Sequence record: PX123008.1
Strand: one strand, 5' to 3'
Source of the DNA: a phage
DNA length: 44,682 bases
Made by a program: the position numbers and the translations under genes. Of this stretch, positions 5,026-41,094 are shown piece after piece (positions within the stretch are counted from its first letter, which is position 1; the number at the start of each line of letters is the position of its first letter). The notes below the pieces were generated by a model. That model saw nothing but the letters and a program-made list of their open reading frames with translations. It made no database searches and was not told the DNA's origin.

Positions 5026-5295
5026 TTAGCGCGGAATGCCGCAAATCTCGTTTAACGTCTTCACGTCCAGCGCCACCGCCGTGGACTTCGGCTTGTCCGG
5101 GTAGGGAATGAACTGTTCCACTTCAGGCCACGCCTTGATCAGCTTCTTATCGGTATTGTGCAAATCCAGCACGCCGGTAACTGTTAGTTTGAACGCGTCA
5201 TACTTCGCACGCAAATCGCGGCGGGCCTTGTCGTTACGGTCCAGGCGCTTACAGAAGTCGTGGTCCGCCGGGTAGTCTATACGACCGCGTGGCAT
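5026..5295 (-). CDS. hypothetical protein; possibly the C-terminal part of the upstream ORF, see (AT)5 finding
   Basis: ORF MPRGRIDYPADHDF...; frame junction with ORF 5277..5792 coincides with an (AT)5 tract. Confidence 0.4.
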   Translation of the reverse strand: MPRGRIDYPADHDFCKRLDRNDKARRDLRAKYDAFKLTVTGVLDLHNTDKKLIKAWPEVEQFIPYPDKPKSTAVALDVKTLNEICGIPR

Positions 5296-5792
5296 ATATA
5301 TATCGGCAGCGCTTTCCCGTCGTCGTCGACTTCGCACACTGACGCTAACAAAATTTCCTCATACCCTGGCACAATATCGCCGAGATCGGGAGACAGTTTA
5401 TTCATGTATTTATACTCCCAGTATCCGCGATGTGCTCGGAATCGGTGTCCGTCTCCGCTCAATGACACGGTACGGACGTTTCCGCCTGCGTTGATTTCGA
5501 AAGTGGCGTCGTAAACGCTGCCTATACCATATGGGTTGTCGGCGTCATGTCTATACGTCGCCTTATTGGTGTACACACAGACGCCGTATATCTGCGACGG
5601 GTCATTGCCGATTGCATAAATGCGCTCACGTAGCTCGGCGAACGTATGAATGCCTTCCGGCATACAGTCCAGCGTAATGGCGTACGCCAGATTTCGAGAG
5701 TCCATCATGATTGATTTGGCTTCGGTCGCGATTTCGTGGTCGCGCAGGATGTTAGCCAGAATCTGGTTTTTAATGTCTTTCGTCAGTCTCAT
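5277..5792 (-). CDS. hypothetical protein
   Basis: 171 aa, ATG with GAGGA RBS 8 nt upstream; no recognisable motif. Confidence 0.5.
   Translation of the reverse strand: MRLTKDIKNQILANILRDHEIATEAKSIMMDSRNLAYAITLDCMPEGIHTFAELRERIYAIGNDPSQIYGVCVYTNKATYRHDADNPYGIGSVYDATFEINAGGNVRTVSLSGDGHRFRAHRGYWEYKYMNKLSPDLGDIVPGYEEILLASVCEVDDDGKALPIYICHAVV
5294..5303. repeat. (AT)5 dinucleotide tract at the junction of two ORFs
   Basis: atatatatat read directly; removing one AT unit would fuse ORF 5277..5792 to ORF 5026..5295 in frame. Confidence 0.9.
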
Positions 5793-11692: not shown

Positions 11693-12006
11693 TTGAGGCG
11701 GCGCGACGCTTTTATGGCCCGCCGCCACCCTCTGAAGATTTAGCCGCAAGTTTATGGGGTGCGGCCCCCGAAGATGTTTGTCCGCCTGTTGCGCTATGGC
11801 CCGACAACGCGAAGGTAGTCGCAGTCTTCACAGATTGCTCCACGCAATGGCGCACCGGATTTGGTGGCGCATACGGCATCGACTACGGCGTGCTGGAGTG
11901 GTTATTTAAGATGCACGGTATCGAAAACGCGCAACGTGCGTTTAAAGATATCAAGCTAATGGAACGCGTTGCGCTGGATGAAATGGCGCGGCAGAACCCC
12001 GCATAA
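11330..12006 (+). CDS. tail assembly chaperone, -1 frameshift extension product (lambda gpGT-like)
   Basis: slippery A_AAA_AAC at 11683..11689 in the 0 frame; the -1 frame is open from 11689 to the TAA at 12004..12006, about 105 codons. Confidence 0.55.
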
Positions 12007-12010
12007 CGGA

Positions 12011-12327
12011 GCGGGACAGGCGGGACGTCCCGTTTTGTCCCGCACCTCTAAAACTGCATATTTACCCACTTACATTGCATAGATTAAAAGCGGGACAGGG
12101 GTGCTGTCCCGATCTGTCCCACCCCCGAAATGTGAATGTCTATTCAGTTTTCGTGCATAAAACAAACGGGACAGAAAGCGGGACAGAATGAGGCGGGACA
12201 AAGCGGGACAGCACCCCTGTCCCCGCCAGTGCTGCCGCGGGTTTTTAGCCGATCGGGACAGGCGGGACAAGCCCAGTCTTTCAGACTAGACGGGGGTCAT
12301 TGGCCCCCCTCGTCTGAGACTGAATAA
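12011..12327. repeat. iteron cluster A: ~8 direct and 4 inverted GCGGGACA copies plus a conserved ~60-bp terminal hairpin
   Basis: GGGACA at 12013, 12092, 12168, 12180, 12195, 12205, 12255, 12264; TGTCCC at 12036, 12105, 12115, 12218; terminal segment nearly identical to 39366..39430. Confidence 0.85.
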
Positions 12328-12390
12328 GGTTTGTTTTAAATTCGCTGATACAATGACCAACGGCAACTGCATAAAAAGGGGGACTGCATA

Positions 12391-15033
12391 ATGGCAGATC
12401 AGGCAGCGGGCATCACGCTCAAGGCGGACGTCGCGCAAATTAAAACGGCTAATACTGTGCTGGACACATTTGCGCAGAAATCCGAGAACACAGAACAGAA
12501 AGTAAAAAAATTAAACGACACCCTCGGCAAGTCGAAAAAGGTTACTGGCGACGCTGCGGGCGGAATGGAAAAGTTAGCGACTGAATCGCAGCGTGCCGCC
12601 GATGGCATGACGAAACAAGAGCGACTCGCCAGCCGATTAGGCATGTCGACCAAAAACCTGGGATTCGCATCGCGGAACGCCGCATTCCAGTTACAGGATA
12701 TCGCGGTTACGCTTGAGATGGGTATGCCGGTGCACCGCGTTATGCTTCAGCAGCTACCACAGCTTACTGGGGCGTTTGGCGGGTTGGGTAACACACTGCG
12801 TTATGTCGTCGGCACCCTCGGCCCGTTAGGTATCGGCATCGCGGCCTTGACGGCAACGCTTGGCGTAGGGGTGGCAATTACGACCCGCGCAGAGAACCAA
12901 GTGGCGGCGCTTAATAAGACGCTGGCGCTGTCCGGTAATATTTCGGGCCTCACAGCTAACCAGATCCTTGTGCTGTCCGAGAACGCTGAGCGCATGGGCG
13001 GGTCATTTCGCAAGACGCGCGACACAATCCAGGCGCTGGCGGCGGCGGGTGTGAAAGCGGGTGGTGACTTCGGCGCATTGGCTAAGGTAGTTAATGACTT
13101 TGCGAAGGTGTCCAGCCAGCCGATCGAGGATGTGGTAGCGGCGGTGGCGAAGCTGTCAACCGACCCCGTTGGCGGACTGCGTGCGCTGGCGGATAAGTAT
13201 CACGTCGTAAACGAAGCGCAGATCCAGCAGGTACAGTCGCTCGTTGATGCGGGTCGTGAGACAGACGCAGTTGCGTTGGCTAACAAAACAGCCGCTGCGT
13301 CGTTCACCAGCATGACCAATGAGATCAAGGCGAACATGGGTACGCTTGAGCGGTCGATGAACGTCGTCACATCGGCAGCCAAATCGATGTGGGACGCTAT
13401 CCTGGATGTGGGTCGCGCGCAGTCCTCCAATGAATCCGAGATGAAAGCGCGCGAATCACTGCAGCGGCTGACCACGGCTTACTATGCCGAGATGAAAGCG
13501 GTAAACGCTGCCGGTGGGGTAATGACTGAAGCGCAGAAAGCACGTATTAACATGCTTTACAGCGAACTGGTCGCCCAGGAAAAAGTGGTGGCGTCGCTCA
13601 CCCTGCGTAACCGTGCCGAGCGGGACAACGCCAGCGCCGCGGAAGAAGCAGCAAAGGCGAACGAGGAGGCCAACCGCACCGCCCGCGACCGCGCCGCGTT
13701 TGAGAAGGAGTACGCAACCAACGCGAAGCGGCGCGCCGACGAGATCGCCCGCCTCAATTTGCTGAATAAGCGTGGCGTTATTGACGAGAAAGAGCTTGCT
13801 GAGGCGGTGAAGCAGGTCAACGAGCGCTACAAAGACCCGGCACCGAAGAAGGCCGCGGCTGTTCGCGTGGATGCAGGGATGAAAATGCTGGAAGTCGCGC
13901 GCAGCGAACTGGCACAGCTTCGAGAATCAGGCAAGCAGATCGAAGCCAACGCGTCGACGCAGACCCGCACGCAACGCGCTCAAGCGGCCCTAAACAAGCT
14001 GATCGCGGATAATGAGCAGTTAATCGCAGCAAGCAAAGAAAGGGCACTAACGGCAGCAGAAAAGCAGCAGATTGCAGAATTCGGACGCGTGAAGGAAGTA
14101 CGCGAGCAGATCGTCGAAGAAGCCAAATTGCTGGACGCGAAAGAGAAGCAGGTCAAGGCGCACGCGCAGATCGACGCCTTCGTTAAGAACCAGAACGCCG
14201 AGCTAAAAGCCACCGCGGCGGGCTATGCGCTTTCCACTCGCGAAGCGGCAAACCTGCGTGAAGAATTGCAGCTAATTGACCGCCTGAAGCGGGTTGGAGC
14301 TAACGATACTGATATTGATCTGGCGGTATCTAAGCTGCGCGAAGTGCAGGAAGCACAGACCGGTGCTAACGCCTCGCTATGGGATGGCTTCAGCCGCGGG
14401 CTTAAGGATAGCGTGGATGAAATGGGTAACGGCTATACGCAGATGACGTCACTCACAAAATTCACGTTCGGCGCTATGCAGGACACGATGAACGAGTTTT
14501 TTGAGACGGGCAAGCTGAACGCAAAGGATATGGTTAAATCCATCCTGAGCGAATTAATAAAGCTGGCTACCTCGCAGGCATTCAAGTCCATCGTTAGCGC
14601 TTTCGGTGGCGACGGCGGAAAAAACGGATTGTTCGGCGCTATCTTCTCGGGCCTCACTAAGAATGCGGACGGCGGAGCGTACGCAGGAGGCAATCTCGCG
14701 GCATATTCGGGGAAAGTGGTAAGCCAGCCTACCTTTTTCAGTTATGGCGTTCAGGCGTTCGCTAAGGGCGCGGGATTGATGGGCGAGGCTGGACCCGAGG
14801 CCATCATGCCACTGAAGCGCGGGCCGGACGGGAAACTGGGTGTTGCCGCGTCTGGCGCAGGCGGTGGTATGGTCGTGACGACTAACGTTTACACGGGGTC
14901 CGGTAAAACAGATACCAGTGTCAGCGGGCCGGACCCCCGTACCGCGCAGGCGTTCGGCAAGCAAATCACCGAAGCGGTGAAGGCCGAGATCGTGAAAGCG
15001 ACGAAACCGGGTGGTGTACTTTACAAACGATGA
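12391..15033 (+). CDS. tail tape measure protein
   Basis: 880 aa, alanine-rich coiled-coil-like with a glycine-rich C-terminal region; follows the G/GT-like chaperone. Confidence 0.85.
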   Translation: MADQAAGITLKADVAQIKTANTVLDTFAQKSENTEQKVKKLNDTLGKSKKVTGDAAGGMEKLATESQRAADGMTKQERLASRLGMSTKNLGFASRNAAFQLQDIAVTLEMGMPVHRVMLQQLPQLTGAFGGLGNTLRYVVGTLGPLGIGIAALTATLGVGVAITTRAENQVAALNKTLALSGNISGLTANQILVLSENAERMGGSFRKTRDTIQALAAAGVKAGGDFGALAKVVNDFAKVSSQPIEDVVAAVAKLSTDPVGGLRALADKYHVVNEAQIQQVQSLVDAGRETDAVALANKTAAASFTSMTNEIKANMGTLERSMNVVTSAAKSMWDAILDVGRAQSSNESEMKARESLQRLTTAYYAEMKAVNAAGGVMTEAQKARINMLYSELVAQEKVVASLTLRNRAERDNASAAEEAAKANEEANRTARDRAAFEKEYATNAKRRADEIARLNLLNKRGVIDEKELAEAVKQVNERYKDPAPKKAAAVRVDAGMKMLEVARSELAQLRESGKQIEANASTQTRTQRAQAALNKLIADNEQLIAASKERALTAAEKQQIAEFGRVKEVREQIVEEAKLLDAKEKQVKAHAQIDAFVKNQNAELKATAAGYALSTREAANLREELQLIDRLKRVGANDTDIDLAVSKLREVQEAQTGANASLWDGFSRGLKDSVDEMGNGYTQMTSLTKFTFGAMQDTMNEFFETGKLNAKDMVKSILSELIKLATSQAFKSIVSAFGGDGGKNGLFGAIFSGLTKNADGGAYAGGNLAAYSGKVVSQPTFFSYGVQAFAKGAGLMGEAGPEAIMPLKRGPDGKLGVAASGAGGGMVVTTNVYTGSGKTDTSVSGPDPRTAQAFGKQITEAVKAEIVKATKPGGVLYKR

Positions 15034-33355: not shown

Positions 33356-33420
33356 TTTCCAATTCCTCATTTTCACATGTATCGGGGTTATTGGAAGCCA
33401 CCCCGTTCGGCTTGGTTGCC

Positions 33421-36503: not shown

Positions 36504-36833
36504 ATGAATGTAAACGACGCAATCGAAATGTTAACGAAGACTGTTTGCAGTGAGACAAGCCGGTCATGGGCTTACACCGATGCCGTGGGGGCGGTGTTAT
36601 TTGAAATCGAACGACTGCGGCTTGCCGAAAAAGAATTGCGCGCCAGGCTGGAACTACTCAATGGTACGGCAGCCAGCAAGCTGCAAAAGCACAATGAAGA
36701 AATGGAAGAATACAAAAAACAGGTTATTCGTTTGCGCGATGAGGGGAAGTCATGGGCGATGATCGCCGAGCTAACCGGAATTAATCAGAGCACCGTGCGA
36801 TCCTGGGTACGCAATAATAAAACCTCTAAGTAA
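36504..36833 (+). CDS. helix-turn-helix DNA-binding protein
   Basis: 109 aa, GAGGA RBS; C-terminal HTH-like segment GKSWAMIAELTGINQSTVRSWVRN preceded by a coiled-coil; directly upstream of the primase-helicase gene. Confidence 0.55.
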   Translation: MNVNDAIEMLTKTVCSETSRSWAYTDAVGAVLFEIERLRLAEKELRARLELLNGTAASKLQKHNEEMEEYKKQVIRLRDEGKSWAMIAELTGINQSTVRSWVRNNKTSK

Positions 36834-36843
36834 GGCAACGGCA

Positions 36844-39108
36844 ATGAGCTTAATTAAATTCGCAGTAACACGACCCGCTAAAAAAGGCGAAAAAGCCAGG
36901 GCGGAAAACTTCCAGATGACCACCGATGAGTTTTTCGAATTTATCAAAGATGCGAAAGAAATCTCCTCGGTGCATATCAACAAGACGGAAGATAAAGCCG
37001 AGTATGCGCGCCGCAAGCGTAAGGCCGATGGCATCGTGGCGTATACCAGTGACGGATTGCGTCGTAAGACCAGTGCGGTGGACCGCTCGATCCTGTTCTT
37101 TGATATTGACCGCACAGACACCCGCACCCTGCGCCGCTGCCGTAAGGCGTTCATCGACGCGGGTCTGGAACACGTATTTCACACCACCACCGGCGATCGC
37201 CACCCGCTGAAGGGCGGCACGCGTTGCGCCCGTTTCCTGGTGCTCACTGACAAGCCTGTACCGGCTGAAGACCTGGGCCGCGTCCAGTATGCACTATTAC
37301 ACCAACTCGGCCTGTCAGATGTGGACTTCGATGATTGCACGAAAGACACAAACCGCCTTATGTACCTGCCTCACCAGCAATCGGTTGTTAAGTGTCACTA
37401 CGGCAAACGTGCCCGCGTCCGTCGTCTGCTTCGCCTGGCGGATAAGCTGGGAGTGAAAAAAGAGGAAGTACGCCGCGAATTAACCCAGGGCGATGACGGC
37501 GTGGCGGACGGCATTCTGGATTGGTGCTTCCAGGCAGGATTCGAACCGCTGTCGTCCGGTCGTGGTTATGAAGTGCCGTGCCCTAACGAACACCTGCACA
37601 GCGGCGAAGGGTCCACCGCTATCATGGTTAAGGATGGCGAGATCCGTTTCAAGTGTATGCACACCGGCAACGAGTGTTGCTCGGAACTGAATAGACACCA
37701 GCACCTGGCGCTACGTCTTATCGGGATCCCGGACCACCTGAACGTCGAACCGCACAACATGTCCCGCAAGCAAATCGCCGCCATCCTTCCGGGACTGGAC
37801 GACGAGGAAGTGGAATCGTGCTATGAACATATCGTTGATGCTGTTGGCGACGGCGAAGAATACGGCGTGTGCACCGATGCGGATCTGGATAACGAGCCGG
37901 TAGCGCTGTTTAGCAAGCACGACCCGATCATCGAGGGGCTGATTAACTTTAAATCGACCTGGTATCTTGCCGGTGAGTCGAACATCGGTAAGTCGTTCTA
38001 TGTGCTGGGCCAGATGGCGTCCGTATCTGCCGGTATCCCGTTTGGCGGTGCGAAGGTCGTCCAGTGCCATAACTTCTATTTCGACGCGGAAGGTGGTGAA
38101 GCCTCCAACCAGCGTAAGGAAGCATTGCAGATCAAATATGAGCACGACCTGGACAAGCTGCACATTATCGATCTGCAATCACGCGGCTGGGATATCACCA
38201 GCAAATCCGGCTTGCGTGAAGTTATCAGCTTCATCAACCGCACCGCTAACGGCGAACCGGTTGGCCTGGTGGCGTTCGACTCACTCAACCAGACTGTTGC
38301 GCTGCGGTCCGCCGATGCGAAGCCGTTCGACGAGAACAACGCCAGCGATATGGGCGAAGTGGTCAAAGCGCTGAAGGCCATCGCGGAAAATACAGGCGGC
38401 AGTGCGGGCGTCATCCACCACCCGGCGAAAGGTGCAAACGGCAGCAGAACGCCACGCGGGTCCGGCGCGCTTCATGGTGCTGTCGATTCTGCGTTCTTCC
38501 TGGAGCAACCGGACGACAATCAGCCCGGCCAATTGAACCTGTATCACGAGAAGGCACGTAACGGCATCAAGCAAGCGCCGCGCGGCTTCGTCCTGCTCAA
38601 GTGCAAGGTTAAGGTGGATCTCCGCAAGTCCGAAGCGTTCGAAGCCCACCAGTCCGCCAGCACCGGGCCGGACTTCGGCGATGTGGTTGCCGGTTGGGAC
38701 GTCAAGCCAATCGCATCCACGCCACGCGACGAGACTCTTTACCTCGTACCGGTCGCCCTGGCACCGTTCGCTATCGAACAGGCAAAGGCCGCTGGCAAAG
38801 CAGCAGTTAAGGAAGAGAACGCCGCAGGACCGCGCAACGAAAAAGAGAAAGTGCTTTATGCGGCGCTGGAAAAACTGATGGAAGATAACCCGGACCATAC
38901 CGGATTCAGTAAGTCGGCAATTGTCCGCCAGGCTGGACTGGCGAAAGGCGGCACATCGACGAAGGCAATCGACGATATGGTCGAGCGCGGCGTACTCGGT
39001 TTTTATACAGATCCGCACACCGGGGCCATCTATGGGTCGTCTAATATCGTCATAAAAACGAATATACCCATCACGCTTTCGGCGACCGATGACGACCTGA
39101 AAGATTAA
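36844..39108 (+). CDS. primase-helicase (AEP-type primase-polymerase domain + P-loop helicase domain)
   Basis: 754 aa; N-terminal ILFFDIDRTD acidic motif; central Walker A LAGESNIGKS and Walker B-like VAFDSL. Confidence 0.75.
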   Translation: MSLIKFAVTRPAKKGEKARAENFQMTTDEFFEFIKDAKEISSVHINKTEDKAEYARRKRKADGIVAYTSDGLRRKTSAVDRSILFFDIDRTDTRTLRRCRKAFIDAGLEHVFHTTTGDRHPLKGGTRCARFLVLTDKPVPAEDLGRVQYALLHQLGLSDVDFDDCTKDTNRLMYLPHQQSVVKCHYGKRARVRRLLRLADKLGVKKEEVRRELTQGDDGVADGILDWCFQAGFEPLSSGRGYEVPCPNEHLHSGEGSTAIMVKDGEIRFKCMHTGNECCSELNRHQHLALRLIGIPDHLNVEPHNMSRKQIAAILPGLDDEEVESCYEHIVDAVGDGEEYGVCTDADLDNEPVALFSKHDPIIEGLINFKSTWYLAGESNIGKSFYVLGQMASVSAGIPFGGAKVVQCHNFYFDAEGGEASNQRKEALQIKYEHDLDKLHIIDLQSRGWDITSKSGLREVISFINRTANGEPVGLVAFDSLNQTVALRSADAKPFDENNASDMGEVVKALKAIAENTGGSAGVIHHPAKGANGSRTPRGSGALHGAVDSAFFLEQPDDNQPGQLNLYHEKARNGIKQAPRGFVLLKCKVKVDLRKSEAFEAHQSASTGPDFGDVVAGWDVKPIASTPRDETLYLVPVALAPFAIEQAKAAGKAAVKEENAAGPRNEKEKVLYAALEKLMEDNPDHTGFSKSAIVRQAGLAKGGTSTKAIDDMVERGVLGFYTDPHTGAIYGSSNIVIKTNIPITLSATDDDLKD

Positions 39109-39183
39109 ATTTTGCGCGCGTTGGTTGCCGATATGGGAATTCCCATATCGCTAAAAGATTAATTTGTGCGCGCGTTGGTTGCC
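39101..39183. repeat. imperfect ~29-bp direct repeats bracketing a perfect 22-bp palindrome
   Basis: aagattaaattttgcgcgcgttggttgcc (39101..39129) and aagattaatttgtgcgcgcgttggttgcc (39155..39183) flank cgatatgggaattcccatatcg (39129..39150); the first repeat includes the primase stop codon. Confidence 0.85.
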
Positions 39184-39250
39184 ATTTTGAGTGTTTTTAG
39201 TTGGTCGCATTGGTTGCCGTGTAGTGTGAATATAATGAATAGTTATGCAA

Positions 39251-39430
39251 TAAAACTGCATAAACTAAGCGGGACAGAAAGCGGGACAAACAAGGGGCGG
39301 GACAAAGCGGGACAGCACCCCCTGTCCCGCCCGGATGGCGCGGCCTGGAGAGGAGCGGGACAAGCGGGACAAAGCCCAGTCTTTCAGACTAGACGGGGGT
39401 CAACGGCCCCCCTCGTCTGAGACTGAATAA
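39251..39430. repeat. iteron cluster B: 6 direct and 1 inverted GCGGGACA copies plus the conserved ~60-bp terminal hairpin
   Basis: GGGACA at 39271, 39283, 39299, 39309, 39357, 39366; TGTCCC at 39323; 39366..39430 nearly identical to 12264..12327. Confidence 0.85.
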
Positions 39431-39585
39431 AATCCGGAGATTGCAAAATACACGGCAGCATGATGCGAAGTGCGGTCGCGGATGAACTAGGCAACCAATG
39501 CTAGTTGCATTATGCGGAGTGGAAAACGCAGTTTGCAGTTACAGCAGATAGCGATCAACTTTTTCATGCGCGTGATTAATATTGG

Positions 39586-39614
39586 TTGCATTCACCCCGG
39601 CACCCTGCTATATT
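39586..39614 (+). promoter_or_regulatory. sigma70-like promoter (TTGCAT-N17-TATATT) with ATTGGTTGCA copies and a conserved leader
   Basis: hexamers read directly; leader GGTTGCACACCAACATGAGGA then ATG at 39643. Confidence 0.55.
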
Positions 39615-39642
39615 GGTTGCACACCAACATGAGGACTGAACA

Positions 39643-39840
39643 ATGGAACACGAAGACCTGGTCGACGAATTGCTTGAGCTGATTGAGGCTGAGAACAAAG
39701 CCGATTTGCAAGCACGCGCAGCATACATGGTCGGCAACATTAAGAAATCGCGCCACTACGCCGGATTGCGTGTAAAGGCGCAAGAGGCATTGCTGCAATT
39801 CCTGGACAGCGTAACCATCACGAAGAGGACTGAACGATGA
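39643..39840 (+). CDS. hypothetical early protein
   Basis: 65 aa, GAGGA RBS, first gene after the consensus-like promoter. Confidence 0.5.
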   Translation: MEHEDLVDELLELIEAENKADLQARAAYMVGNIKKSRHYAGLRVKAQEALLQFLDSVTITKRTER

Positions 39841-40142: not shown

Positions 40143-40421
40143 GTGGTAAAAATGGGCCGTAGACGAGCAAAACAGCTTTCGTGGCATATTCCACTGCATT
40201 GCATACGAATATGGGCTAAGAATGCGAATGCGGGGGATTCTGTATTCTGGTGCTATCGCGATGACGTAAAGCCGTTGACGCAGATTCGCTACCTGCACCA
40301 GTTCGCAGCGCAACACGATTTCAGGGTGCGGACCTCCTTGCAACCAATGGGGATTCGTATTACATTACGCCGGAAGCCCGCCGTTGAGCGGGTAGGAAAA
40401 CACTGGAGACTGAGCAAATGA
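40143..40421 (+). CDS. hypothetical early protein
   Basis: 92 aa; start uncertain (GTG 40143 or ATG 40152, both with weak RBS). Confidence 0.35.
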   Translation: MVKMGRRRAKQLSWHIPLHCIRIWAKNANAGDSVFWCYRDDVKPLTQIRYLHQFAAQHDFRVRTSLQPMGIRITLRRKPAVERVGKHWRLSK

Positions 40422-40570
40422 CACCAATGCAAAGAGCACTAATGGCGGGATTCTCGCAGAAGTTTATTTCAGTAGACGCCTGCATAGCTGATTATGAGAT
40501 GGACGGCATCGCTACGGTATGCGATGGCGACTATAAGACTGTTGACGAGATTGAGGAGACTGAGCAATGA
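40418..40570 (+). CDS. small ORF (50 aa), not in the supplied track
   Basis: ATG preceded by GGAGACTGAGCAA, the same context that precedes the next gene; ATGA overlaps on both sides. Confidence 0.4.
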   Translation: MTPMQRALMAGFSQKFISVDACIADYEMDGIATVCDGDYKTVDEIEETEQ

Positions 40571-41094
40571 GATTACTATTCCGCCGCAAATCAGACGGTC
40601 GCATACTGAAGCCGATCCAGACCCTGGATTCCTACGTCCGCTTGCACCGCGCGGCAAGCGATCGGGTATTCCGCGCATCGAAGGGCACATTGCCGCAGTT
40701 CTTCGAAGTCCTCACACACGATATTGAGCGCGGCGATGTGTTGCGTGATATTCGCGACGGGCAATTGTGGGTCGTCGAGTATGTCGGTCTTCATGGCCTG
40801 CGTATGCAATCCCGCAAGGATGGCGTAGCTGGTATGACGTACTTCGGGCTAATCCACTACGTGCGCGTGGGTCGCAAGTACAGCCTTCGCGACCGCCAGC
40901 CGCATGAGCGCGCTACTTACGACGCGACCCAGGTGCAATCTAAAATTCGCCGTGCCGCGCACGAAATCGTCAATCGCTTTGATGCCGTGACGAATGCGCA
41001 GCGCCAGGCACGGGAATACGGCGTCGGGTTTATCCGTGTCGAACCAGACGGCAGCATGAAGGCCATCGACCCGCGCTCGGTGATTCTGAAATGA
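40567..41094 (+). CDS. hypothetical protein
   Basis: 175 aa, GGAG RBS. Confidence 0.5.
   Translation: MRLLFRRKSDGRILKPIQTLDSYVRLHRAASDRVFRASKGTLPQFFEVLTHDIERGDVLRDIRDGQLWVVEYVGLHGLRMQSRKDGVAGMTYFGLIHYVRVGRKYSLRDRQPHERATYDATQVQSKIRRAAHEIVNRFDAVTNAQRQAREYGVGFIRVEPDGSMKAIDPRSVILK

Follow-up and report, generated by a model that had tools for sequence, protein, structure and literature searches.

The window analysed here is the whole 44,682-nt stretch of phage DNA in sequence record PX123008.1, and the element of interest is a 22-bp palindrome that lies between two direct repeats immediately behind the gene for a primase-helicase. The same 22 bp recur inside genes for proteins with the KilA-N domain, which is among the commonest DNA-binding domains of phages and giant viruses. 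The 801 bp around the element match 159 records of a phage database at 76–94% identity; nearly all are Escherichia or Shigella phages of the genus Dhillonvirus (SO-1/HK578-like; relatives of Sodalis phage SO-1), and the window has the gene order of Bas84, a relative with good annotation. After the structural genes comes a block of leftward genes for replication and recombination and then, from about 36.3 kb, a rightward block that opens with the gene for a small helix-turn-helix (HTH) protein (36504–36833) and continues with the primase-helicase. The element occupies part of the 534-bp gap between the end of the primase-helicase gene and the next open reading frame (ORF), which begins at 39643. 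The features of the locus are as follows.

36844–39108, plus strand: primase-helicase gene, 754 amino acids, given as context (ORF list; match to Pfam AAA_25, E = 8.7e-20; replicative helicase/primase in relatives).
39097–39129, plus strand: direct repeat 1, 33 nt, comprising the gene end with stop codon, a variable spacer and box 1 (repeat search, box search, variability).
39113–39129, plus strand: box 1, TGCGCGCGTTGGTTGCC (variability 0.039 among 12 carriers).
39129–39150, no strand: 22-bp palindrome CGATATGGG-AATT-CCCATATCG, the palindrome found inside KilA-N genes, here in a free-standing copy (repeat search, shuffles, 22-mer matches in databases).
39151–39183, plus strand: direct repeat 2, 33 nt, comprising a copy of the gene end that is non-coding and decaying (CTAAAAGATTAA), then a spacer, then box 2 (repeat search, alignment, variability).
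39167–39183, plus strand: box 2 (variability 0.015, against 0.09 for the gene-end copy).
39202–39218, plus strand: box 3, TGGTCGCATTGGTTGCC, a third, degenerate box that every relative examined has, EP23 included.
39267–39373, plus strand: iteron block of "region B", GCGGGACA, six direct copies and one inverted, kept in all relatives; context, outside the indel described below.
39490–39501, minus strand: GGCAACCAATGC, inverted partner of box 3, beyond the iteron block and a hairpin (12 of 12 positions complementary, 271 nt apart).

The palindrome, CGATATGGGAATTCCCATATCG (11 + 11 nt), is perfect, as an earlier note on this DNA had reported, and no other palindrome longer than 14 bp occurs anywhere in the window. 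Palindromes of at least 22 bp arose in 3 of 200 dinucleotide shuffles, so that by itself the palindrome is an event of about 1.5%. The bracketing repeats, which the note put at about 29 bp, are present but measure 33 nt, with 30 of 33 positions identical and a spacing of 54 bp. Repeat 1 holds the last four codons of the primase-helicase gene together with the stop codon (39106–39108), the final 12 nt of the gene, CTGAAAGATTAA, forming its 5' part. Repeat 2 carries a non-coding copy of this gene end, which indicates a duplication at the level of DNA. Each repeat ends in TGCGCGCGTTGGTTGCC, and within the window the full 16-nt box is restricted to these two repeats.

Eighteen relatives were aligned from the end of the primase-helicase gene onward. 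The repeat–palindrome–repeat structure is found in nine of them; eight, SO-1 among these, show an exact absence of 54 bp and retain a single repeat; in one, EP23, even the single repeat is absent. The 54-bp indel corresponds to 39130–39150 plus repeat 2, and palindrome carriers make up about 81 of the 159 phage-database records; TheodorHerzl is of the single-repeat type, whereas Oekolampad, like the window, has one cassette. Copy number and content also vary. PNS1 has two full units and Teewinot has five units of 53 or 54 bp behind the primase-helicase gene (locus L301, 790–1070): one with a canonical palindrome, three in which the native downstream flank ATTTTGG replaces the left arm, and one with a 12-bp deletion. 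In the most divergent relatives, Kenya-K19 and LM40P1, two boxes stand just 7 nt apart (ATGTTGG or AATATGG) and are followed directly by TTAA; here the right arm and the gene-end copy are gone and the boxes are still duplicated. The repeat copies of one genome tend to share variants, which fits unequal crossing-over or gene conversion. With 0–5 units among close relatives, hybrid units and variants shared within a genome, the arrays resemble minisatellites that evolve by unequal crossing-over, but differ from them in that the unit holds sequence that is conserved across phyla and constrained in carriers.

Together these data show robustly that the feature is an accessory, copy-number-variable cassette of 54 bp that directly follows the primase-helicase gene of this virulent Dhillonvirus, about 85 bp ahead of the region B iterons. 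For the repeats the best account is that a tandem duplication left them behind and that the palindrome, or else its right-hand 14 nt, filled the junction. The duplication adds one more GCRTTGGTTGCC box, and such boxes bracket the iteron block. The earlier note took the whole for a compound cis-acting region and made conservation in relatives the measure of that view. The DNA is indeed non-coding and cis-acting in appearance; however, the palindrome and one repeat are dispensable, about half of the relatives lacking them, yet they are constrained in carriers. About half of the relatives do without the 54-bp unit, so it is no indispensable component of an origin, an operator or a packaging site.

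Constraint was measured as per-site variability in a small sample of 12 distinct carriers. The palindrome arms (0.02–0.04) and the boxes (0.015–0.04) vary least; the 4-nt centre of the palindrome reaches 0.125, the non-coding gene-end copy 0.09, the repeat spacers 0.17–0.25 and the next 21 nt 0.07. Among carriers, then, the palindrome arms and the GCRTTGGTTGCC boxes are 2.5- to 5-fold better conserved than their surroundings.

The 22-mer is far from peculiar to this genus. A scan of IMG/VR for RATATGGGRATYCCCATATY found it in at least 120 viral contigs, mostly not Dhillonvirus. A search of 596 Gb of species-representative genomes for the exact 22-mer, with R/Y allowed at the two inner centre positions, returned 80 genome stretches, against about 0.14 expected at equal base frequencies; among the hosts are Nostocales, Saprospiraceae, Firmicutes, Spirochaetes, alpha-, beta- and gammaproteobacteria and Dehalococcoidia. 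At least 44 of the 80 lie inside ORFs with a KilA-N domain (PF04383), at one alignment position, between RLKxT and GGxxxQGTW. The nucleotides are read in two frames at this position: as xDMGIPIS in most genes, and as RYGNSHIA in eight genes of Saprospiraceae/Aureispira. The same nucleotides in two frames cannot be explained by a protein motif, and on this ground, together with the frozen synonymous sites and the freely varying encoded residues described below, over which the symmetry is kept, we reject a conserved DMGIPIS motif as the cause of the recurrence. The 22-mer is stop-free in all six frames (DMGIPIS, RYGNSHI, IWEFPYR). Outside KilA-N genes it is also covered by two long, putative open frames, of 748 amino acids in Chthoniobacteraceae (L153) and 1988 in Azospirillum (L181); the N-terminus of an L153-related frame in L131 may be primase-polymerase-like.

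The window copy is the commonest allele of this intragenic family, identical at 22 of 22 positions, its arms being 9 bp, its centre 4 nt and its outer positions CG.TA...TA.CG. It does not occupy the intragenic position; it is intergenic and belongs to a free-standing class. No KilA-N gene was found in the window by tblastn or profile hidden Markov model, and a decayed fragment of such a gene is rejected, given that similarity ends at 22 bp. A literature search found no paper containing the palindrome sequence, no study of a cis element in Dhillonvirus and, within the library searched, no description of a target site for KilA-N.

Two samples of genes were collected with degenerate back-translations of protein segments elsewhere than at the palindrome, a procedure blind to codon choice in the palindrome. 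The first comprises 24 unique genes from enterobacterial viral contigs, 63–100% identical in amino acids. Most degenerate codons in this sample differ in 40–70% of pairs that encode the same residue, whereas the GAT, CCC, ATA and TCG codons of the palindrome are invariant and its two centre codons are limited to GGR and ATY. CCC and ATA are rare codons in E. coli. The second sample comprises metagenome relatives of the family that uses the second frame, at 43–82% identity. Here other palindromes stand at the same site, their arms changed symmetrically: CGTTATGGGAATTCCCATAACG, CGTTACGGGAATTCCCGTAACG, CGATATTCAGATGTGAATATCG and CGATATTCCAAATGGAATATCG, and further CGTTATCGGAAATCCGATAACG, CGTTACTGGGATTCCAGTAACG and CGTTCGGGGAATCCCCCGAACG. 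The amino acids encoded at the site are free to change (GNSH, SDVN, SKWN, WNSS, RKSD). The best inverted repeat of 9 + 4 + 9 nt in the homologous 75 nt matches at 9/9 positions in 43 of 83 unique genes and at 8/9 or better in 60 of 83; in three control regions of equal length a 9/9 match was found in 0 of 249 cases and an 8/9 match in one.

Frozen synonymous sites and symmetric arm changes point to selection at the level of DNA. On the basis of these comparisons the palindrome belongs, robustly, to a DNA element under strong, symmetric and frame-independent constraint in KilA-N genes, among them BstA-like defence genes from within the host range of the phage itself. Operators of dimeric proteins, and the 22-bp (9-4-9) targets of homodimeric LAGLIDADG enzymes such as I-CreI, share with it two identical half-sites and a lax 4-bp centre. 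The likeness to LAGLIDADG targets implies no nuclease activity; KilA-N and LAGLIDADG domains are reportedly related in fold, a relationship credited to Iyer and colleagues in 2002. The symmetric co-variation of both arms would fit a dimer whose specificity drifts.

Free-standing copies were classified in viral contigs, using loci of up to 14 kb and the canonical or the CGTTAY variant palindrome. There are 164 viral instances: 71 in KilA-N ORFs and 93 outside them, the latter at about 25 different sites, and for just one of the 93 is a KilA-N gene present in the same fetched locus. Two large classes of free copies occur in the nin regions of lambdoid prophages, downstream of replication genes. 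One is found upstream of ninB, with the end of a gene on one side and an intrinsic terminator on the other; the second lies beside hokD/gef, where the homology of hok cassettes breaks off exactly at the edge of the palindrome. No KilA-N gene is present in a complete prophage of the hokD class. Similarity among free copies always stops at 22 bp, and no duplication was seen by eye in the flanks (about 15 nt) of copies outside Dhillonvirus. Empty sites of the lambdoid free copies were sought as well; the phage-database search was uninformative, and the E. coli search gave a homology breakpoint, not a clean indel. Matches near the primase gene of the Providencia phages Redjac and Stilesk were rejected: they cover a 14-bp core only, which is compatible with chance. 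The one free copy with a KilA-N gene nearby is on a prophage contig of 10.6 kb (L021), which has both kinds of copy, a KilA-N/BstA-like gene with an internal palindrome (4796) and a free copy of the hok type (10625), 5.8 kb apart. The palindrome-bearing version of hokD is found in 667 of 5426 complete E. coli genomes.

The KilA-N genes themselves suggest a context. Enterobacterial and alphaproteobacterial KilA-N proteins match the PADLOC model of BstA over the C-terminal domain (E = 2.7e-20 and 2e-18) and share 29% identity over 133 residues (E = 5e-15) with BstA of Salmonella prophage BTP1. A gene for a CI-like repressor of the Peptidase_S24 family stands just upstream of the KilA-N gene in at least 44 of 80 loci. 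At least three types of S24 repressor precede genes with the same palindrome, and we therefore reject the palindrome as operator of the neighbouring repressor. KilA-N relatives from cyanobacteria (two) and Saprospiraceae (one) do not match the BstA model; the palindrome thus tracks the KilA-N domain and not the C-terminal domain of BstA.

BstA is a widespread prophage defence that blocks replication of the DNA of superinfecting phages, and its gene, bstA, is preceded by the repressor gene (Owen et al. 2021, PMC8585504). The prophage is spared its own BstA by aba, a short element in the bstA locus that acts as DNA, in cis or in multicopy, and is specific to its own BstA variant; a transplanted aba makes P22 immune (PMC8585504). 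The element of BTP1 has been mapped to 63 bp at the 5' end of the gene, spanning the start codon and carrying terminal CCCGCC direct repeats, while aba of the other tested BstA variants is unmapped and both the trigger of BstA and the mechanism by which aba neutralises it are open (PMC8585504). A literature search found no later mechanistic work on aba. Like the intragenic palindrome, aba is short DNA inside a prophage gene that combines a KilA-N or KilA-N-like N-terminus with a BstA C-terminus and stands downstream of a repressor. It works when moved to another phage, which by analogy is the behaviour that we would propose for free-standing palindromes. It is cognate to a protein variant; the palindrome, compared at the level of sites, varies symmetrically among KilA-N relatives. 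The two differ in form: aba-BTP1 is not palindromic, whereas the palindrome is a 9-4-9 element of 22 bp located about 170 nt inside the KilA-N coding part. The copies inside genes lie in genes with a BstA C-terminal domain, whereas the window copy lies outside any bstA locus.

These observations lead us to a reading of the cassette as a captured, aba-like decoy or immunity tag directed against KilA-N/BstA-like proteins, to which, judging from comparisons of sequences, we give a probability of roughly 0.4. The palindrome would be a dimer-binding DNA ligand of the KilA-N domain, itself a predicted DNA-binding domain. Inside the gene it would serve as a tag of "self", as aba does, or as an autoregulatory site. 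The phage would have acquired a copy, probably as filler at the junction of a tandem duplication, and this copy may have been kept and amplified as a decoy or immunity tag on replicating DNA, beside the replication module. KilA-N/BstA-like proteins of resident prophages would then fail to abort replication of the phage, and free copies in phages without a KilA-N gene would likewise be decoys that protect the replicating genome. The position near replication genes in three unrelated phage groups, the patchy occurrence and the changes in copy number fit an accessory of an arms race better than a core cis element. A more general form of the idea, in which KilA-N domains recognise a 9-4-9 palindrome in their own coding sequence, kept in two frames and co-varying across phyla, as a general mark of self and foreign that virulent and temperate phages have copied into non-coding DNA near their replication genes so as to pass for self, strikes us as conceivable but rather unlikely. 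On that broader view the window would hold the earliest case to be recognised in a virulent coliphage, its copy number adjusted by unequal crossover.

Several findings weigh against the decoy reading. The sole mapped aba, that of BTP1, has no sequence similarity to the palindrome, and bstA-BTP1, the N-terminal domain of which is described as "KilA-N-like", has no 9-4-9 palindrome, its best match being 7/9. KilA-N genes whose C-termini are not of the BstA kind likewise contain the palindrome, so its primary role may be autoregulation or something else. The cassette has been lost or truncated in many viable relatives, and most of the extra units of Teewinot have no left arm, so that selection on the palindrome is not universal. 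A KilA-N/BstA-like gene was detected, at megablast sensitivity, in just 139 of 5426 complete E. coli genomes; in E. coli EC2641 and O111:NM 14614 the protein has 253 amino acids. Finally, the flanking duplication of 33 bp is confined to Dhillonvirus and has no mechanistic explanation.

An alternative is that the cassette is a functionless by-product: a short piece of prophage DNA would have been caught as filler when the gene end was duplicated in tandem, the array would since have drifted by unequal crossing-over, and the palindrome would be of no use to the phage. The cassette comes and goes among viable relatives in 0–5 copies; units of Teewinot have ATTTTGG for the left arm, and K19 and LM40P1 retain just 7 nt of it; and repeat 2 reiterates the last codons of the gene, as a plain duplication would. 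Against it, the arms in carriers are 2.5- to 5-fold less variable than the adjacent non-coding positions while the centre varies, a pattern also seen in KilA-N genes; the captured piece stops exactly at both edges of the palindrome; and free copies cut off at precisely these edges are found in many other phages, at sites that are unrelated. We consider this explanation unlikely.

If instead the palindrome were a hotspot of recombination, or the target of a site-specific recombinase, then its position in phages would reflect past recombination at junctions of modules. The homology of hokD cassettes in E. coli prophages (L304, 2960–3330, compared with L303, 1460–1830) ends exactly at the left edge of the palindrome; the flanks of free copies are unrelated between classes; and a 9-4-9 layout with variable centre resembles the targets of recombinases and homing endonucleases. 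Yet no recombinase co-occurs with it, the site in KilA-N genes covaries in place over long evolutionary distances and marks no breakpoint there, and the array in Dhillonvirus is accounted for by ordinary homologous unequal crossover between the 33-bp repeats. This alternative is somewhat harder still to sustain.

A third possibility is an RNA hairpin with a stem of 9 bp and a loop of 4 nt, which would stabilise or process the 3' end of the primase-helicase mRNA and, in KilA-N mRNA, regulate translation or stability. The hairpin is part of the predicted minimum-free-energy fold, it would form immediately after the stop codon, and compensatory changes preserve its pairing. Against this, the whole region folds no better than shuffles (z = -0.99), and there is no U-tract. 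No Rho-independent terminator was called on either strand of 38900–39800, the palindrome being followed by CTAAAAG, and an Rfam search of the region gave sub-threshold chance matches only and no known RNA family. Across 35 distinct palindromes, the non-Watson-Crick pairs on the sense strand number 6 GT/TG, 8 AC/CA and 14 others, and thus show no preference for G.U; the outer CG.TA positions are nearly invariant, a conservation of sequence that goes beyond pairing. The lack of a G.U preference and the near-invariance of the outer positions fit a double-stranded DNA site of a symmetric dimer better than an RNA hairpin, which we regard as improbable.

Two further candidates were discarded. A CRISPR-like mini-array is contradicted by the absence of an Rfam match and by a "spacer" that does not vary, the palindrome standing in this place in every carrier and in each unit of PNS1, and the insertion of a transposon or miniature inverted-repeat transposable element by the occurrence of the 33-bp duplication in Dhillonvirus only.

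The promoter-associated motif TTGGTTGC of the earlier note is truly enriched, with 21 copies against about 2 expected, a count that 0 of 100 shuffles reached, and the strand of the 21 sites is the direction of local transcription. The GCRTTGGTTGCC box is a local variant of this genome-wide motif. Sites of the motif include 6411, 6425, 25159, 25171, 26832, 26849, 39582 and 39613. It comes in two flavours: TTGGTTGCA, often paired at promoter-like sites, where it gives a -35 hexamer TTGCAx or else stands just upstream of, or over, a -10 TATAxT; and TTGGTTGCC, found at 33412 and around region B. A consensus scan of 38900–39800 revealed no Sigma-70 promoter (-35/-10, spacing of 16–18 nt), and by eye the boxes are out of register with any -10 hexamer inside 39097–39183. 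The HTH protein of 36504–36833 (plus strand, 109 amino acids), the C-terminal HTH of which matches HTH_23 (E = 4e-7) and Sigma-70 region 4 (E = 4e-6), is a candidate binder of the -35-like TTGGTTGC motif; in Bas84 it is labelled a "transposase".

Downstream of the cassette, the box-3 arm at 39207–39218 and its partner at 39490–39501 form a perfect inverted repeat of 12 nt that brackets the iteron block. The iteron element that the earlier note placed about 70 bp downstream exists, but starts at 39267, 84 bp away. In the SO-1 record (NC_013600.1), 40178–40657 is annotated as "region B", with direct, inverted and palindromic repeats and similarity to a region A. The stretch is the intergenic one that follows the primase-helicase gene here, and the window contains region A as well as region B; SO-1 differs from the window in having no 54-bp cassette, one repeat and no 22-bp palindrome (loci L003 and L019). 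Its annotation of region B hence refers to the iterons and hairpin and not to the feature described here.

Regions A (12000–12330) and B (39240–39430) of the window contain homologous blocks of about 190 bp that share an identical long hairpin, CAGTCTTTCAGACTAGACGGGGG...CCCCCCTCGTCTGAGACTG, as well as the GCGGGACA iterons, which number 17 in the window where about 2 would be expected. Region A lies within the tail-gene cluster, just upstream of an 880-residue ORF (12391–15033; tape-measure by analogy with Bas84). A short hairpin between box 3 and the iterons, TTATGCA-ATAAAAC-TGCATAA (39244–39264), has its 7-nt loop exactly inverted (GTTTTAT) in about one third of relatives while the arms are unchanged, a flip-flop polymorphism. 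An 84-residue GTG ORF runs through the iterons (39166–39420, plus strand) and is listed as a hypothetical protein in some relatives (e.g., Bas84_0054); being built from the repeat block, it is probably not a gene. Elsewhere, between the spanin and scaffold genes, 5277–5792 (minus strand) encodes a protein with nucleotide modification associated domain 5 (Nmad5, E = 4e-19). GC skew tracks the direction of transcription and located no origin in the window. An essential iteron-type origin is expected to be kept in all replicating relatives; the downstream iterons are conserved, and the 54-bp unit is not kept.

That the palindrome and boxes form an operator or auxiliary origin element, bound by a phage protein such as the HTH protein of 36504–36833, is about as improbable as the RNA hairpin: although the cassette adjoins the iterons and is bracketed by TTGGTTGCC boxes, the HTH protein has its match to a fold like that of sigma-70 region 4 and the SO-1 record marks the intergenic region as a repeat region, the palindrome is missing from half of the genus, occurs in identical form in unrelated phages and in bacteria without Dhillonvirus genes, and is not the conserved part here, which is the boxes.

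If the decoy reading is correct, then virulent phages would evade abortive infection by means of a stolen, non-coding "password" of DNA. Such counter-defences would form a class that is invisible to protein-based searches for anti-defence genes, and would be relevant to the choice of therapeutic phages. The palindrome offers a candidate ligand for KilA-N, a defined site of 22 bp that is under clear selection at the level of DNA within the KilA-N genes and comes with a natural series of variants. Natural phages with 0, 1, 2 and 5 copies, together with collections such as BASEL, make the ideas of binding, self-immunity and decoy open to test.

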